From positions 38,687 through 102,686 of IMG/VR virus record IMGVR_UViG_3300032268_000887: 64,000 bases of DNA; one strand, 5' to 3'. The notes beneath the pieces are model-generated. The model worked only from the letters and a program-made list of their open reading frames with translations. It ran no database searches and was not told where the DNA came from. Shown one piece after another: positions 19,669 through 63,979 of the stretch. This DNA is from a virus. The translations under genes and the position numbers were made by a program. Each line of letters opens with the position of its first letter. The first letter of the stretch is position 1.

Positions 19669-20271
19669 TTAAACTTCTTCTAGCGTTAAATTAATATTCC
19701 ATAGGTCATGAGTAGTTGATCCTCTTTTTACTACAGAGTAAGAAAAATCTGTAAAATACATTTGAATTATTTGATTGTATTTAGTGTTATCATCATATTT
19801 ATCATATGCCAAATAGACCCAAAAAGGACCTTTATGATTTTCGTACCACTCTAATAATTCTAATCCGCCAGCGCCACCATCAACAGTAAATTCATCGGTA
19901 GTTCCCTTAAGAGATGTTAGGCCTGATGTATCAAATGCTGGGTTATCAGCGTATGCTTTTGATGGTAACATTTGCCAAGATGTTGATAAACTAATCTTAT
20001 CTGCAATGTTATATGCCCTCATATTTCCATTGATCATTCTTTCTCTTTTTTGTATTCTTTCTTGACTAAAGGCTAGTTCAGCCCTATTATGATCCGACAA
20101 AATTAAAAATGTATTCTGTTCATCTGTTGGAACCCCCGCTAAATCTGATCCAATTTCATATCCGTCTGGATAATAAAATCCGCTAGATAAAGTTCCTGAA
20201 TTTTCAGACCAAAGCATTGCTTGCGGAAGTCCATACTTACGTCTACCTGCTAAATATGCTGAGTTAGCCAT
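19669..20271 (-). CDS. Distal tail (Dit-like) protein
   Basis: Directly follows tape measure; RMING..WNINLTLEEV. Confidence 0.6.
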   Translation of the reverse strand: MANSAYLAGRRKYGLPQAMLWSENSGTLSSGFYYPDGYEIGSDLAGVPTDEQNTFLILSDHNRAELAFSQERIQKRERMINGNMRAYNIADKISLSTSWQMLPSKAYADNPAFDTSGLTSLKGTTDEFTVDGGAGGLELLEWYENHKGPFWVYLAYDKYDDNTKYNQIIQMYFTDFSYSVVKRGSTTHDLWNINLTLEEV

Positions 20272-23200
20272 TAGTATGTATTCCCCCTCAATCTTCTAGC
20301 ATCCATTTGTCTAATTTGTGTAATTACTGTTCTTGCAATATCATCTGGACTTGCAGAGGTATCATTTACCCCCACACTTAGACTATAATTATACACTGAA
20401 GTGTTGTTGTTATTTACTGAATTATTATTAATTGCTGTGACTGTAGGAGTTCCTCCAAGAGACAAACTGTCTGGATATTTGGACTCATTTATTCTTTCTA
20501 GTAATGGCCCAAATTTTTGTGAAGCAGCCCTATTCATAACAAACTCTCCTGGGGTAAGCATTGCACGAACGCTGTCCGTCATTCCGGATCCAGAAACTGA
20601 GCCTCCTGATGAATATTTCTTTATAAACCCACCGTACATGTTTCTTTCTCCTGCACGAAAATTTTGATATGCTGCATTATTTTTATATCCTGCCCCTAAT
20701 GCGCTTGCTGTTATGTTTGCGTCTGGGGCCTGTGTGCCAGCCTTTATTGCTGATGAAATTGGCGTACCTACTGTATTAACACTTAATGTTATATTTTTAT
20801 CTTTAATATCGTCCCAAAGTTTTTTAATTGCAGCAACAATACCTTCTCCAATTTTAAATCTATCATTGGTTTTATCTGCTTCAAATGCTGCCGCTTGTAT
20901 AGCCAGTTGTTGATTTTCCCATGCTGTTCTTGCTGTATCAATATTTTTAATTCTTGCATCCAAAGCATCTCTAAGCGGTTGTAACTCATTAACCTGATAA
21001 TTATAGTTTTTATCTTGTAGCGCTGTAATTTCAGCAATTATTGGTAATCTTTTTTGTTCAAGATTATATATTTTTTCTTCAATTTGCGCCCTAGTAAATC
21101 CTCCTGCTGTAAGTGCTGAAATTTCTGATTCTTTTGCTGTCTGTAAAGCATTAGAACTTATCTGTATGGCATTTGCAGCATCGGTAGCACGCATTTCTTG
21201 TGCTGCTCTTGCTGCAGCAGAAATATCTCCACTTGTTAAAGCATCTGCAAGATTTAATCTTCCTCTTTCTTGTTCAGCAATTTCTTGATTAAGACTAGAT
21301 ATTTTTTCAAGTGCTTTTTCTTGTTTATCATATTTTTTATTAATATCATCTGCAGCCTTATTAATTATTGCTAAGTCTTGATTAAGTTTTTCAATTGGTC
21401 TGTCATAATCCATCTCAATGCTGCGTTGCTTAATGTCGATTAATTTTTCGTTAGCATCAATAAGTCCGTTAACTCTATCAATTTCTGGTTGAGCAGCAGC
21501 CCTTGCTTGTTTTTCAAGGAAGTCATAATATTTCATTGCCTTATTCATTTGAATATCAAAGGCTTTTTCTGGGTCAGTGTCTTCTAATAATTTTTGTTCT
21601 GCAGCCACTCTTTCATTATATTTTGCAATTAACTTATCCTGTAACTCAATACTTTTTGCCTGTTGTAGGTCATACATAAATTGTTCATCGCTCATCATTT
21701 CTAAAGAGTCTGCAACAGAAACTCCAGCCTCTCTAAGCCTAATAAAACCTTCTGTCTGCATCTTTATTGCGGTTATTGCTGTATCAGCCTCTGCAGCAAA
21801 ACCACCTAAGCCTGCTTCTTGCATAAGTTGCATAGCCTTTTCTCCAACAGGAGTAAGTTCTACGAATCCCTCTTTAAGTTTTGCAACATTAAGGTATGCT
21901 GCTTGAGTTTTATTGTCTAATCCTTCAATAAAATTAACAAAGTCAAGGTTTGCACCCATGTCATTAAGTTGTTGAATAACACCAGTGAATTTTGTCATAT
22001 CTCCGCCAGACTCTTTAAATATTCTATTAAGTTCTCCTATTCCACCTTCTGCATCAATACCTGCATCCCTTGTCATTTTTAATTTTCTTAAAAGATCGTC
22101 AAGGGTTGTATCTCGATCGCCACCGCCTAAGCCAGCACCGCCTGGTTGATTGCCTGAACTTGTTTTTTCTTTAGGAAGATATTCTTTTGTTGCTTTTGCA
22201 GCACCTTTATCACTTATTTTATATGAATATACTTTTTCTCCTTCTTTGTCTACACCTTCTATTTTTTCTATAGATCCTGCACCTTCTGCAATGAGTTGGC
22301 TTTCTTTTATATCTCTTCCTATACCCGTTAAACCAACTAGTTGATCGTCTATGTTTTGTGCTGCTGCTGCATTGGCTGAAGCCAGATCTGCATACCTTGT
22401 TTCACGAATTGTTACAAATTTAGAAATTGCTTCTTTTTGTATTGAGTCTGGTAAAGCATCAAAATCTTTCCATTGTGACATTAAAAGTTCTAGTGACTTT
22501 TCGTCAAGTCCAGTTCCATTAAGTGCACCATCTTTAAGAGATTGTATAATAATCTTTTTAGATAATTTTTTAGGTAATTTTTCTACAATTGATAGTTTAT
22601 CTGCTAACTTTACTAGTCCATCATATCCAACAGTCTCTATATATGCAGACATATTTACTTCATGACCATCTAATACTTGCAGTGCAGCAAGTGCTTCTCC
22701 AATTTTATCAAAAGTTGCAGGATCAGAGTTTATAATTTGTGTAGATATCTTAACTGCTTTTTCTTTATCTAAATCAAGACCTGTAAAAAAGTCTAGCATT
22801 GCTACAGTTTTTTCTGATCCCTGTTTTCTAATTCCAAGGGCAAGTGTTTGTTGTAACTCTGGCAATTTGCCTGCAAATAAATCTAGCAAGGCATTACTTT
22901 GCTCTGGATTTAAAATTTTATTTTTCAATAACAAAGACATTTGAACTTCAAGTTCTTGGGCTTTTTCTGCTGATCCAAAACCACTTTTTGTTTTTCCACC
23001 ATCAAGTAGGGAAAGACCGCCGGTTAAATCACTTAATTTAGAAAGACGTTTTAATGCATTGCTAGCAAGGCCTTCATACTCTGTACCTTTATATGCATCT
23101 TTTACTGTTGATTTAAGAGAGTCAAAATATGCGTCTTCTCGCATATTTGTATCGTTAAATGGCAAATCAATAGCAAATTGATCTTTAGTCTGAATCCTTG

Positions 23201-26200
23201 TTTTAAATATTTCTATTTCTTTTTGTAGCCTATCGGATAACATGGTATTAATTTTTGAAACATCTGTTGCTTGATTTGTTTCTAAATCTGATATTTGTTG
23301 TTTTATTTGAAGTTGTTTTTCAAGGCTTGCTGTTGTTTCTAATTGCTTGTTTAGTAAATCAATTTGTTTTTGATACATCATGTTGGTCGCATCTGCTTGA
23401 GCCTGTATGATTTCTAAGTTATTTGCACCAACTGCTGCAATTCTTGCTGCTTCATTTCTTCCGGTAGTCGATCCAGACTCTGCTTTTGATAACCTTGTTA
23501 ATTCTTTATCTGTTCGCTTAATAGCCTGAGCAATAATTTGTGTTCTAATTCTTAATGGGTCTTTTGCTAAATCTTCTCCATTTGGACCTATAATTGATCT
23601 AATATTTCCTTTAATTTCAATGCCATATTTTTGATTTCCAAGTTGAATGCCTATTTGTTCTGCTATTCCCTCTGCTTGTTCGGCAGTTAAAACACCATCA
23701 GATACATATGTTGATAGTTGTAATGCAAAGTCTGATGCTGCTTGTTTTGATCCAAACTTTTCCATATTTTCAACAAAACCTTTAACCATGTTTTTGCCAA
23801 GATCGGATTGTAAGAATTTATCTCCAAACATTGAACCTGCTCTTTGAGCATCATTATATGCTCCAAAAGAGCCAGATCTTCTCCTTCTTTCCATTATTTG
23901 CGAAGCACCGACTGCTCCTGTTATTTTTCCAACTTCTTCCATTTTCTGTGCTGTTCCAGATGTTGCTTTTACGAACTCTGCTTGTTTCTTTGCGCTTTGT
24001 TCTAAATTTTTACTTAATAATAAAAATCCCCCAGCAAGTGCTGCTGCAGCGGCTGCTGCTGCGACATATGGGTTCATTAGCATTGGGAGCATTGATGTTA
24101 CAGCAGATGCACCCATTAATCCCATACCCAAATTATTATTGCCAGTCATAAATGCACCCATAGAGGCCATACCTAACGCACCCGCTGCTGGTCCCGCAAC
24201 AGATCCAACTCTTTGTGCACGTTGTGCCCTTTGTTCACGTTTTAGATCTTTAGCACTTTGTGTTGTTGGCTGTGTTAGTTTATCTGTTGCCTCTGTGTTT
24301 GCATTTAATGATGTAATTAACTGTTGAAGTTGTGTGCCAGGAACATTTATATTTGGAGCAATACTGCTCATTGGGGCAACATTGCCCATTTTAAATCCTG
24401 ATCCTGGCGTAGTAACAGAAGGATTCACCCATCCACCATCTGCGCCTAAAGCAAAACTTCCAGGGCCTTTAAATCCAGGCCTAGGAATAACTCTCATAAC
24501 CTTTGACGCATCCAAAAGACGAGTATCTCGCTTACTTCCACCTATTTGTGTTGTATCTTTTGTTTTAGAGTTTCCAGTTGATGGTGTTACTTGACTTGCT
24601 CTTCCTTTATTGTCTATAACGCCTTCTCCCGGAGCCACAGCAATTTTAGGCTTTGTGCCACCTCTCATTGCCTCAAGTAAGGCGTTGTCTTCTCTATCGT
24701 AACGGGCCTGCTGAATTCTACGTATGTCATCTACTATAGTGCTTCCTGTTTTTCCTGCTACAGTAGATGCTGTAGGTTGGTACCCTTGTGCCAAAGATTT
24801 ATCTGAAAAATAAATTCTATTGGCTTTTGATCCACGGCCAAGACTTACTTCTTTTCCATCGTTAGTTTTAATAATAAGACTTTTTGTTGCTGTTGCTCCA
24901 GATTGTCTTTGTCTTGTTTCCACTCTAAAGTCTTTAATAATCCCAGCACGTTTTGCTTGTTCTAAAACTTTAGCGCTAGTCTCAGGAGTAGATCCTAATC
25001 CTCTTCCTAAAGAGTATCCCCCAATTCTGTCATACTGACTTAGCATTTTTTGATATGCTGGAGTAGATTTAATATTGTCAGGAACATTCTTAAAAGCATT
25101 TTCTATAACGGCATCAGTAACTCTTGGAGATCTTCTTATTTGATCCATCATTGCTGAATCAATTGATTGGGCTTGTGCTGAAGTTAATCCTGAAGGTGCC
25201 CACTTATTTGGGCGACTTGTCCATTCTCTTTCAAAATCGATTAAAGACACACCATTCTTTGTTGCCAAACCTTTATTTAGGTTAGGATCAAATGAAAGTG
25301 CTAAGGAGCCATATGCTCTTGCTTCTGGATATTTTCCTGTTGCTTTTAATATATCTCTATATATTTGGGCTTGAAGTTTTTCATTTTTTGTTAGCCTTCC
25401 TTGTGCAATTATGTCATCTATATTTGTTAATCTTCCCCCGCCTACGTGAGTATAGTCATCTCCTGCAGAAACAGTTCCTCCTCCGTACTGTTTAATTTTT
25501 CCAGTAACAAGCGCTTCTACAATTGGTTTATATTTGTCATCTTGTGCAATGCCTGTAGGAATAACAGCCTCTCCTGGCATCAAGAGAGACGGTATAGAAT
25601 CTTTTCCTGGAGTTCCACCAACAACACCAGTTGTACCTGATGCAAATTTCTTTGGAGTTTTTCCACCTTTAATTGCGCCAGGACCCATCATTCCAGGATT
25701 TGCTCTTGCAAAGTTTGTTGCTGCTATTGTTGCATCAATATATGCTTGACGCAATAGTCTGACTGCTGATGCTTCTGCAGAAAAAGATTGTGTTAAACGA
25801 GTGTGTGCCTGATTTAATGATGCTGCTACTGTTGCTGCTTCTAGTTGTTCTGAATTTAAATAACTTGTTTGGTCAGCCAGGACTTTTGTATTGCTTCCTG
25901 CTTTTAAGAAGCCAACTCTCATTGTTACAAATAGTTTAATGATGTTTGCAACACCGTTTGCCAACAAACCAAATGTCATTAATAATACTGGGCCAATTAT
26001 TCCAACAAGTGCTGATGCTACAACAATAAACTTTTTAGTTCCTTCCCCCAGGTTGTCAAATTTATCTAATAATCTTCCTAAAAATTTTACAACTGGAGTT
26101 ATTGCTTCTAAAAATGCCTTACCTATTGGGACAATAGCAAGTTTTAATTTTTCAACAGATTCTTTAAAATCAACCCCTATAGCATTTTCAACTGTTCCTA

Positions 26201-27656
26201 ATTCTCGTTCTGCTAAAATGGCAAGTTCTTCAATAGAGGCATTTGTAAGTTGTAAAACCTTATTAGCCTGTGTTCCCTCTTTAGTAACGTTTTGGAATAA
26301 TGTTGATAGACGTGAAAATTGGAACTTACCAAATAGTTGCTCAATAGCACGAGCACGATTAAGTGGATCTAGTGTATCTAGTGCTTGTGCAAATCCTATT
26401 ACGGTATTTTTAATGTCCCCCTGATTTGCTTCAACAATTCCTTTAATATTAACGCCAAAGCCAGCCAACATTTCACTAGCCTTTTTGCTTGGATTAATTA
26501 ATGATGCTAGGCCAGATTTTAGAGCGTTTGCTCCTTCAGATGCATTAATTCCACCCTCTTTCATAGCGGTCATGAAGAATGCTAAATCTTCAACTGATCC
26601 ACCTAGTTGTTTGACAACTGGGCCTGCTTTAGGAATTGCTTCTGTTAAATCTTCAATAGATAAAATTGTCTGGTTTTCAACTGAGTTAAGAAAATTTATT
26701 TTGTTTGCCAAATCTTCTGATGCTATACCAAAAGCATTTGTAACAGAGATAGTTGTCTCTAAGGCTTGTGCTTGTTCTACTCCGCCAAGGACTGCAAGCC
26801 TTGTGGCTTCTGATACTTGAGCAGTTAAATCAGCCCCCATCTTACCCATTGCTGCTGCAGAGGCTGCCATCTCCATAGTTTGAGTAACGGCAACTCCATA
26901 CTTTGTAAATGATTCAGCAAGTTTTTGAATTTCTCCTAGCGCTTTATTTGTTTCATCAGTAGTTGTAAACATGTCTCCATAAACACGCTTAAACTTAATC
27001 GCTTGTTTTTCAAGATCCATAAATGTCTTTGCAGCAGCGGTACCAAAATAGGCAAGTGGTATTGTAAAGCCAACCATAAGTTGACGTCCTGCCCATTGTG
27101 TATTTTTACCAAAGTTTAAAAGATTAGTAGATCCTTGTTTTAGTAATTGATTTAATAGTGCTTGTTTTTGTGCTGCTAAGGCTGTTTTAGTTGCATAGTC
27201 ATTCATGTCCAAAGTTCTTGGAGTGATTGACATTGCCTTAATAGCACCAGATGCATCACGACCCATTTTGATATATTGAGTCTGCATTTTCTTAACACGC
27301 TCTTCGGCTACCTTGCCAATAGTGTTAAATTCTTGCTTAAATAATTTTCCAAATGTTCTTGTAGATCCGCCTGCATAACGGAAATACTCACGCATTGAAA
27401 GTTTGTTCTTTTCAAGTGAGTGAGTAAATGACTCTGTCGAACTTCTTACTAGCCCCATTTGGGCAGAAAATTTGCCCGTAGCATTAATTGAATTTAAAAG
27501 ATTAGTAGATAGATTTTTTTGCGCTGCAACAGAGGCAGCACTGCCTTTTGATAGAGATGAATGAAAGGCTGCTAGTTGCCTCTGTAAACTTTTTAGTTCT
27601 GCTAAAGCGGCGGATGCATCTATACTTACGCCAATTTTAGCGTTTACATCAGCCAT
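20271..27656 (-). CDS. Tape measure protein
   Basis: 2461 aa, Ala/Gly-rich helical; TP901-type core (AGPV..LG..EDLA..GINASEGANALKS), hydrophobic segments, MLTPGEFVMN near C-terminus. Confidence 0.95.
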   Translation of the reverse strand: MADVNAKIGVSIDASAALAELKSLQRQLAAFHSSLSKGSAASVAAQKNLSTNLLNSINATGKFSAQMGLVRSSTESFTHSLEKNKLSMREYFRYAGGSTRTFGKLFKQEFNTIGKVAEERVKKMQTQYIKMGRDASGAIKAMSITPRTLDMNDYATKTALAAQKQALLNQLLKQGSTNLLNFGKNTQWAGRQLMVGFTIPLAYFGTAAAKTFMDLEKQAIKFKRVYGDMFTTTDETNKALGEIQKLAESFTKYGVAVTQTMEMAASAAAMGKMGADLTAQVSEATRLAVLGGVEQAQALETTISVTNAFGIASEDLANKINFLNSVENQTILSIEDLTEAIPKAGPVVKQLGGSVEDLAFFMTAMKEGGINASEGANALKSGLASLINPSKKASEMLAGFGVNIKGIVEANQGDIKNTVIGFAQALDTLDPLNRARAIEQLFGKFQFSRLSTLFQNVTKEGTQANKVLQLTNASIEELAILAERELGTVENAIGVDFKESVEKLKLAIVPIGKAFLEAITPVVKFLGRLLDKFDNLGEGTKKFIVVASALVGIIGPVLLMTFGLLANGVANIIKLFVTMRVGFLKAGSNTKVLADQTSYLNSEQLEAATVAASLNQAHTRLTQSFSAEASAVRLLRQAYIDATIAATNFARANPGMMGPGAIKGGKTPKKFASGTTGVVGGTPGKDSIPSLLMPGEAVIPTGIAQDDKYKPIVEALVTGKIKQYGGGTVSAGDDYTHVGGGRLTNIDDIIAQGRLTKNEKLQAQIYRDILKATGKYPEARAYGSLALSFDPNLNKGLATKNGVSLIDFEREWTSRPNKWAPSGLTSAQAQSIDSAMMDQIRRSPRVTDAVIENAFKNVPDNIKSTPAYQKMLSQYDRIGGYSLGRGLGSTPETSAKVLEQAKRAGIIKDFRVETRQRQSGATATKSLIIKTNDGKEVSLGRGSKANRIYFSDKSLAQGYQPTASTVAGKTGSTIVDDIRRIQQARYDREDNALLEAMRGGTKPKIAVAPGEGVIDNKGRASQVTPSTGNSKTKDTTQIGGSKRDTRLLDASKVMRVIPRPGFKGPGSFALGADGGWVNPSVTTPGSGFKMGNVAPMSSIAPNINVPGTQLQQLITSLNANTEATDKLTQPTTQSAKDLKREQRAQRAQRVGSVAGPAAGALGMASMGAFMTGNNNLGMGLMGASAVTSMLPMLMNPYVAAAAAAAALAGGFLLLSKNLEQSAKKQAEFVKATSGTAQKMEEVGKITGAVGASQIMERRRRSGSFGAYNDAQRAGSMFGDKFLQSDLGKNMVKGFVENMEKFGSKQAASDFALQLSTYVSDGVLTAEQAEGIAEQIGIQLGNQKYGIEIKGNIRSIIGPNGEDLAKDPLRIRTQIIAQAIKRTDKELTRLSKAESGSTTGRNEAARIAAVGANNLEIIQAQADATNMMYQKQIDLLNKQLETTASLEKQLQIKQQISDLETNQATDVSKINTMLSDRLQKEIEIFKTRIQTKDQFAIDLPFNDTNMREDAYFDSLKSTVKDAYKGTEYEGLASNALKRLSKLSDLTGGLSLLDGGKTKSGFGSAEKAQELEVQMSLLLKNKILNPEQSNALLDLFAGKLPELQQTLALGIRKQGSEKTVAMLDFFTGLDLDKEKAVKISTQIINSDPATFDKIGEALAALQVLDGHEVNMSAYIETVGYDGLVKLADKLSIVEKLPKKLSKKIIIQSLKDGALNGTGLDEKSLELLMSQWKDFDALPDSIQKEAISKFVTIRETRYADLASANAAAAQNIDDQLVGLTGIGRDIKESQLIAEGAGSIEKIEGVDKEGEKVYSYKISDKGAAKATKEYLPKEKTSSGNQPGGAGLGGGDRDTTLDDLLRKLKMTRDAGIDAEGGIGELNRIFKESGGDMTKFTGVIQQLNDMGANLDFVNFIEGLDNKTQAAYLNVAKLKEGFVELTPVGEKAMQLMQEAGLGGFAAEADTAITAIKMQTEGFIRLREAGVSVADSLEMMSDEQFMYDLQQAKSIELQDKLIAKYNERVAAEQKLLEDTDPEKAFDIQMNKAMKYYDFLEKQARAAAQPEIDRVNGLIDANEKLIDIKQRSIEMDYDRPIEKLNQDLAIINKAADDINKKYDKQEKALEKISSLNQEIAEQERGRLNLADALTSGDISAAARAAQEMRATDAANAIQISSNALQTAKESEISALTAGGFTRAQIEEKIYNLEQKRLPIIAEITALQDKNYNYQVNELQPLRDALDARIKNIDTARTAWENQQLAIQAAAFEADKTNDRFKIGEGIVAAIKKLWDDIKDKNITLSVNTVGTPISSAIKAGTQAPDANITASALGAGYKNNAAYQNFRAGERNMYGGFIKKYSSGGSVSGSGMTDSVRAMLTPGEFVMNRAASQKFGPLLERINESKYPDSLSLGGTPTVTAINNNSVNNNNTSVYNYSLSVGVNDTSASPDDIARTVITQIRQMDARRLRGNTY

Positions 27657-63320: not shown

Positions 63321-63498
63321 TCTTGCGCCCTTGTATCCAACCTGAATGAATACCGATTAGCGGTGCGTTAATGTTAACCGCTGTTCCTAATGGTAATGCG
63401 TCAGCATATCTCTCGATAAAATCTAACACGCTGTCCTTGTTTTCAAACGGCATCTCTTTTACTGTACCGCTTACTGATGTTAGTTCTACTGGTATCAC
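63313..63498 (-). CDS. Hypothetical protein
   Basis: 61 aa, AGGAG RBS, GTGA coupling. Confidence 0.7.
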   Translation of the reverse strand: MIPVELTSVSGTVKEMPFENKDSVLDFIERYADALPLGTAVNINAPLIGIHSGWIQGRKSV

Positions 63499-63632
63499 TT
63501 GTCTCTCCTAATCAATTTAATTGAATAAATGAACGCAATAGTGCCAACCAACAACCATGTTGGTATCTCTACTGCTAAGGCAATGCTCTCGGCATATAAA
63601 CCAAAACCATCTAAGTCTAAAAATAGTTCCAT
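63495..63632 (-). CDS. Small membrane protein (not in ORF track)
   Basis: MELFLDLDGFG..WLLVGTIAFIYSIKLIRRDK, 45 aa; GAGGAGG RBS. Confidence 0.65.
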   Translation of the reverse strand: MELFLDLDGFGLYAESIALAVEIPTWLLVGTIAFIYSIKLIRRDK

Positions 63633-63634
63633 AA

Positions 63635-63787
63635 TTATTTAACCTCCTCTAAATTGTATTGAGCAGAAAGATAAGCGTTAGCCTGACTTAGTGCGTCAAG
63701 TAAAGACTTATCCTCTCTATCATAGCGAGCCTGTTGGGCTTTTCTAATATCCGAGATAAGGGGATTGTTAGGGTTATTGTTTATCAT
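63635..63787 (-). CDS. 50-aa protein sharing a motif with the tape measure protein (not in ORF track)
   Basis: MINNNPNNPLISDIRKAQQARYDREDKSLLDALSQANAYLSAQYNLEEVK; AAAGGAG RBS; first gene after the 63829 promoter. Confidence 0.75.
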   Translation of the reverse strand: MINNNPNNPLISDIRKAQQARYDREDKSLLDALSQANAYLSAQYNLEEVK

Positions 63788-63828
63788 TTGTAGTTCTCCT
63801 TTCAAGAGACTTTCTTTCTATACCTGCA

Positions 63829-63850
63829 ATTCTAGCAGGGGGGTCTGACA
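63829..63850 (-). promoter_or_regulatory. Extended -10 promoter with TGTCAGACCCC upstream element
   Basis: TGTCAGACCCCCCTGCTAGAAT. Confidence 0.6.
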
Positions 63851-63878
63851 ATTTAGGGGGGTTATTTGCTAGGCTCAC

Positions 63879-63894
63879 TGTGATTTGTCTCACA
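63879..63894. promoter_or_regulatory. CRP/GlxR-consensus box
   Basis: TGTGA-TTTGTC-TCACA, flanked by TTGCTAGGCTCAC direct repeats (63866-63878, 63900-63912). Confidence 0.6.
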
Positions 63895-63950
63895 TTTACT
63901 TGCTAGGCTCACGCCCCTAAATAATTCTATATTTAATTTTCTATAATGGA

Positions 63951-63979
63951 ATTATAGCAGGGATAAGCCCAAAAGTCAA
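63951..63979 (-). promoter_or_regulatory. Near-consensus sigma70/SigA promoter
   Basis: TTGACT, 17 nt, TATAAT with TG extension. Confidence 0.8.

Follow-up and report, generated by a model that had tools for sequence, protein, structure and literature searches.

A short helical module encoded both by a small gene and within the tape-measure protein of an uncultured freshwater phage

Introduction

Tape-measure proteins (TMPs) are usually seen as rulers and channel formers, and to our knowledge the only TMP-embedded motifs described as having a job of their own are cell-wall enzymes of actinophages. The TMPs of mycobacteriophages contain embedded accessory motifs 1–3, which are dispensable, among them motif 3 of TM4 gp17 (Piuri and Hatfull 2006, PMC1796659). 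These motifs are not needed for viability and are thought to act at entry; they are similar to cell-wall enzymes of the host and act as hydrolases. Certain small phage proteins are also functionally linked to the TMP and to DNA entry, such as the surface lipoprotein Ltp of phage TP-J34, which has HTH repeats, and the membrane protein gp15 of HK97; neither of them copies a segment of the TMP. In phage T4, Alt is packaged and injected, and its paralogues ModA and ModB are made early.

Here we analyse a 64,000-nucleotide stretch of phage DNA (the window) and show that one amphipathic helix module of ~26 residues is encoded twice in this phage lineage. The module forms the N-terminal half of a 50-residue protein and, flanked by linkers, a helix in the hypervariable centre of the TMP. 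The mycobacteriophage motifs come nearest to it among known systems: like them, it is a short conserved motif in a length-determining TMP that is patchy among related phages. It differs from them in being a helix of 26 residues that lacks an enzyme fold and has the phage's own small gene as its sole relative. The logic would be the same as that of Alt, ModA and ModB, with one activity supplied with the virion and then again by early synthesis. However, the T4 proteins are full ADP-ribosyltransferases and Alt is carried in the head, whereas the module is a peptide in a tail TMP for which delivery is only proposed, and the two systems have no sequence or fold relation. The small protein in turn differs from Ltp and gp15 in that it has no membrane anchor, no lipoprotein signal and no PHROG or Pfam match.

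Results

The window and its relatives

The window corresponds to bases 38687–102686 of an IMG/VR record of 102,686 bp (94% complete, GC 34%) that derives from an uncultured freshwater phage of ~100 kb. Nearly all of its genes lie on the minus strand, and they include genes for tail fibres, ribonucleotide reductase, portal, protease, capsid, the TMP and a DnaE-type polymerase. No close cultured phage was found, and the small gene described below was found in none of the cultured phage relatives. A match to PF10145 (87.7 bits against a gathering cut-off of 33.2, E 1e-24) identifies the product of the longest virion-module gene as a TMP, and a tblastn search with this protein returned annotated actinophage TMPs. 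Likeness to the TMPs of large Streptomyces and Gordonia siphophages is confined to the N-terminal quarter, with 27–30% identity. The coordinates of the features are collected in Table 1.

Table 1. Positions of the features discussed, in the window unless a related locus is named
Feature	Position	Strand	Details
Small gene	63635..63787	minus	50 aa; ATG at 63787, TAA 63635-63637; AAAGGAG 8 nt upstream of ATG
Small-gene module	63683..63763	minus	PLISDIRKAQQARYDREDKSLLDALSQ; aligned with TMP
TMP gene	20271..27656	minus	2461 aa; Pfam PF10145 (PhageMin_Tail), residues 247-443
TMP module	24660..24740	minus	TMP residues 973-999, TIVDDIRRIQQARYDREDNALLEAMRG
Predicted sigma-70-type promoter	63951..63979	minus	TTGACT-17-TGcTATAAT; 11/12 matches, extended -10
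Leader	63788..63950	minus	~160 nt; 17-nt direct repeats, TGcTAGAAT element, inverted repeats
Next gene	63495..63632	minus	45-aa single-pass membrane protein; starts 2 nt past the small gene's TAA
Stand-alone C-terminal-half gene, G007	L052 1698-1790		
Stand-alone C-terminal-half gene, G015	L154 1152-1250		
Stand-alone C-terminal-half gene, G016	L153 1394-1492		

A protein-constrained small gene behind a near-consensus promoter

As far as the sequence allows us to judge, the 50-residue ORF is a genuine protein-constrained gene. Intact homologues of 44–62 residues are present on 23 related viral contigs, and among the relatives synonymous differences far outnumber non-synonymous ones (pN/pS ~0.1–0.3). 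The gene of the window differs from that of L003 by six synonymous changes and no non-synonymous ones, and from that of L023 with a pS of 0.49 and a pN of 0.056. The ATG is preceded by the strong SD sequence that an initial annotation of the window had pointed out (Table 1), and we take this ATG as the start because many relatives carry a stop two codons 5' of it. The same stop led us to drop a TTG at 63805, which would give a protein of 56 residues.

AF2 models the small protein as a single α-helix of 40 residues (residues 9–48) that follows an Asn/Pro-rich tail, with a pLDDT of 82. Q18, Q19, Y22, E25, D26 and L30 are invariant in the family and R15 nearly so, and the C-terminal half has a leucine-zipper-like a/d pattern when read from the sequence (L30, L33, N37, L40 and Y44). 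We found no hydrophobic segment and no membrane or secretion signal in the 50 residues, and the protein is thus predicted to be of a cytoplasmic, soluble type without a signal peptide.

Searches of Pfam, PHROG (E up to 0.1), PDB profiles and the ESM Atlas gave no usable match to the small protein, and none of the PHROG profiles in the categories of described anti-defence or host-takeover families matched it at E up to 0.1. With HMMER, 1.84 billion representative proteins were searched exhaustively, and six clusters of phage proteins of 48–74 residues came up, together with a weak hit, P0007; the set yielded no host homologue of the module. We treated P0007 as a chance match, since its E-value of 2e-4 in HMMER was accompanied by an hhalign probability of 3% and a gap was needed for the alignment. 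P0007, which lies outside the window, is a protein of 1098 residues with ~13 tandem 34-residue repeats containing TIRQSQNQYDREGKAI, which resembles the module core. Another database protein, P0008 (134 aa, NCBI source), consists of a small-protein homologue with an 85-residue C-terminal extension.

The small gene was originally described as the first gene behind two promoters. One of these is clear, a predicted sigma-70-type promoter that is one of two sites on the minus strand of the window to match the consensus so well and that is conserved in G001, G007, G015 and G016. The second consists only of an extended -10-like element, TGcTAGAAT (63825–63840), and lacks a good -35. A 16-nt repeat of the -10 region occurs at 63825–63840 and 63947–63962. 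The leader between the clear promoter and the gene also contains two 17-nt direct repeats 34 nt apart (63862–63878 and 63896–63912), and in a search of the leader against Rfam no family reached its gathering score.

The contig of the window ends 213 nt upstream of the small-gene ATG, and in the complete relative G001 the small gene opens the run of genes that follows a divergent intergenic region of ~460 nt. The membrane protein encoded next runs from an acidic N-terminus through a single transmembrane helix to a basic C-terminus. It has homologues at the same place in G001, G007, G015 and G016 and, of the two genes, is the more widely conserved at this position, and it is followed by a run of tiny genes, several of which are Cys-rich. 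The small gene is thus predicted to head an operon of small genes behind a near-consensus, host-type promoter, and it is this layout that suggests an early time of expression.

The small protein and the TMP contain the same helical module

The initial annotation had matched the small ORF to a stretch of the TMP with 15 identical residues, and our searches bear this out. The motif DIRRIQQARYDREDNALLEA lies at 24669–24728 in the TMP, exactly where it had been placed, and BLASTP aligned 32 residues of the two proteins with 15 identities, including QQARYDRED (E 4e-9). In an all-against-all comparison of the 475 ORFs of the genome the pair still had an E-value of 8e-8, so the match survives multiple testing, and when the small protein was searched against all six frames of the genome the TMP was the sole other match (E 3e-7). 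Furthermore, an HMM for which only the small-protein family was used scored the TMP of the window at 39.9 bits, and its TMP hits ranged from 27 to 41 bits.

The alignable stretch covers 27 codons, and only 48 of its 81 nucleotides are identical. The codon is the same at just 6 of the 15 identical residues, which indicates that the copies are not a recent DNA duplicate and agrees with the homology at the protein level that had been proposed. Indeed, no recent DNA copy between small gene and TMP module was seen among any of the pairs compared. The common core, R-x2-QQ-x2-Y-x3-D-x3-L, places the conserved residues on one helical face. AF2 models the module as a helix in both contexts, as anticipated in the initial annotation; in the TMP it is a helix of 25 residues whose flanks are low-confidence, Gly-rich coil.

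Within the TMP the module is the only conserved island in a variable centre

The TMP module lies between two hydrophobic blocks, at residues ~540–585 and ~1150–1215. When many relatives were aligned, the centre of the TMP, from a conserved LMPGEAVIP block to the second hydrophobic block, was essentially unalignable across lineages, and the module was the only conserved island in it. It usually sits 70–150 residues upstream of the second hydrophobic block, and in G001 and G002 it is found ~200 residues earlier. In three lineages (G004, G006 and G007; G009; L050) there is a clean gap of ~32 residues at the module site. This combination of a short conserved island, a variable surrounding region and a patchy occurrence among relatives is that of a TMP-embedded accessory motif. 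Pfam and the PDB gave no match that would liken the module to an enzyme or a host protein, and no host protein resembling it was present among the 1.84 billion representatives.

In the module-less TMPs of L041 and L035–L039 a motif-like stretch occurs at residues ~2058–2095. Its HMM score of ~0.6–4 bits is not significant, and we rejected it as a further copy. The stretch near residue 2058 is part of the C-terminal coiled coil, and gaps are needed to align it with the module.

The residues that are invariant in the TMP copies (R, QQ, Y, D and L) fall on the same face as the invariant residues of the small proteins, and by this comparison the TMP copy looks selected. An alternative is that the TMP centre is a hot spot that captured the helix as a tolerated length filler, with no function in common with the small protein. 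The centre does appear to be a recombination hot spot, in that TMPs that are nearly identical apart from their centres can differ by the exchange of a whole central cassette: P0011 is ~96% identical to L082 and L092 elsewhere, and their central cassettes (~270 aa, residues ~720–990) are unrelated. The module is also patchy and dispensable, as filler would be. However, filler would hardly be expected to form the sole conserved island among lineages that are otherwise unlike in this region, nor to keep the same polar residues invariant in both contexts despite scrambled synonymous sites. We therefore consider a mere filler unlikely, and the distribution of module classes described next also bears on it.

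The small gene has a modular make-up, and the helix may have been exchanged more than once

Both halves of the small protein have separate lives in relatives. G006, G007, G015 and G016 contain a stand-alone gene of 30–32 residues, a homologue of the C-terminal half (11 of 24 residues identical, E 5e-4; positions for three of these are given in Table 1), and the gene of the window thus looks like a fusion of two mini-modules, unless the other genomes carry a split version. In G006 and G007 the N-terminal module alone is retained, fused to a different tail. The first gene of G016 (L153 1483–1680) encodes a protein of 65 residues with an N-terminal, zinc-ribbon-like CxxC...CxxC arrangement and the module core RIAQQAKYAKE at its C-terminal end. 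Together with the half genes of G006 and G007, this core suggests that the functional unit may be smaller than assumed.

The TMP copies fall into three sequence classes. The copy of G012 has 17–19 of 28 residues in common with the small proteins and at most 15 with any other TMP copy, and it also has pre-helix residues that are found in the small proteins. That one TMP class is closer to the small proteins than to the other TMP copies suggests that small gene and TMP have exchanged the module more than once, an argument based on identity counts over 28 residues and not on a resolved tree. The small-gene locus is mosaic too, which is in keeping with a filler captured by general shuffling. Yet the module occurs in TMPs at two positions and in three classes, and it would be a coincidence if a gene of 150 nt in a genome of 100 kb had been its source by chance time after time.

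Small gene and TMP module are gained and lost independently

In the near clade the module is present in 8 of the 17 TMPs, and the small gene was found wherever its locus was covered. In the wider clade the module was detected in 6 of 80 distant TMP loci, 64 of which were near full length. Both loci could be assessed in ten genomes. Four of these have both copies (the phage of the window, G001, G002 and G016, the last with its variant small gene), five have the small gene and a module-less TMP (G004, G006, G007, G009 and G020), and one, G015, has the TMP module and no small gene. The G015 genome is 96% complete, and its syntenic first gene has been replaced. The replacement is an unrelated ORF of ~53–80 residues (L154 910–1152).

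The initial annotation had looked to co-occurrence and co-variation of the motif and the small gene, and neither is borne out: the first fails in the five genomes with the small gene only and in G015, and the second in the four genomes with both copies, where no paired substitutions were seen. These comparisons show that selection at the protein level maintains both copies, although each has been gained and lost independently of the other. Because module-less TMP lineages are common, any benefit of the module must be conditional.

This distribution bears directly on the possibility that the small protein binds the TMP module helix to helix, either to control how the TMP folds or assembles or to act on it once it is ejected. 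Two long helices with the same face, one of them with a zipper-like a/d pattern in its C-terminal half, could be made for such pairing. In the module half of the helix, however, the would-be core positions are occupied by polar residues, and direct partners would be expected to co-vary and to stay together, whereas the small gene is kept in five genomes with module-less TMPs and G015 has the module without the gene. A predicted complex of the small protein and a TMP fragment scored 0.02, a value that we counted neither for nor against such pairing. We regard direct pairing as quite improbable.

Three functional ideas had been put forward in the initial annotation, an inhibitor delivered twice, a decoy and exclusion by competition, and the twice-delivered inhibitor fits the distribution best. 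The idea that fits worst is a decoy, in which the small protein would divert an immune sensor that recognizes the TMP module. A decoy would be expected to take just this form, a copy of a virion epitope that is made early. However, a module that triggered immunity should be purged from TMPs, and here it is conserved and, in one class, apparently reacquired; moreover, phages without the TMP module need no decoy and yet keep the small gene. A decoy role therefore appears extremely improbable.

Exclusion by competition is possible. Here the TMP helix would dock to a host partner in DNA entry, and the early, free peptide would block this partner or the incoming TMP, and so exclude other module-bearing phages. 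Ltp-type exclusion proteins are known to target TMPs (PMC11480721), and the position of the small gene, first behind a strong promoter and 2 nt from a gene for a small membrane protein, would suit such a role. Its retention in phages without the TMP copy would also be understandable, and escape could explain the module-less TMPs, including those with the 32-residue gap found in three lineages. On the other hand, entry is an envelope event and neither a membrane signal nor a secretion signal was found in the small protein, and a variant-for-variant match of small gene and TMP was not seen. Since so few TMPs of the wider clade contain the module, there would be few rivals to exclude. Furthermore, the closeness of the G012 TMP copy to the small proteins fits movement from the small gene into the TMP better than mimicry of the TMP by the small gene. 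Taken with these points, exclusion strikes us as unlikely.

Discussion

We tentatively favour the reading that the module is a partner-binding helix that may be supplied by two routes, as a free protein and as an optional copy in the TMP. In this model, which is built from sequence comparison and structure prediction, the conserved polar face of the module would bind a single third party, probably a host protein. The free small protein would be the primary and widespread form, first made after infection, and some lineages would have put the same helix into the ejected TMP as well, so that it would be present at entry, before phage gene expression. The effect on the putative partner could be inhibition, anti-defence or takeover. 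A primary free form with an optional TMP copy would explain why the small gene is widespread and the TMP copy patchy, and it would also account for the possible repeated acquisition of the module and for the state of G015, in which only the TMP copy is present.

A stronger version of this two-route reading would make the TMP a vehicle for a host-targeting peptide, with the helix of the first-expressed protein grafted into it more than once and acting at time zero. We consider this version possible but doubtful. If it is true, it defines a dual-route effector strategy in siphophages, in which the same effector is both virion-borne and made early.

Here a non-enzymatic peptide module in a TMP recurs in the phage's own first gene, is conserved on a scrambled background and may have been exchanged more than once. 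The pair of small gene and TMP may hint that small accessory genes are connected with the DNA-entry machinery in a way not yet described, and the natural relatives without the module are ready controls for comparing the free with the TMP-borne peptide. Binding of the module to a host factor, if it occurs, would mean that TMPs are able to bring effector peptides into the cell.
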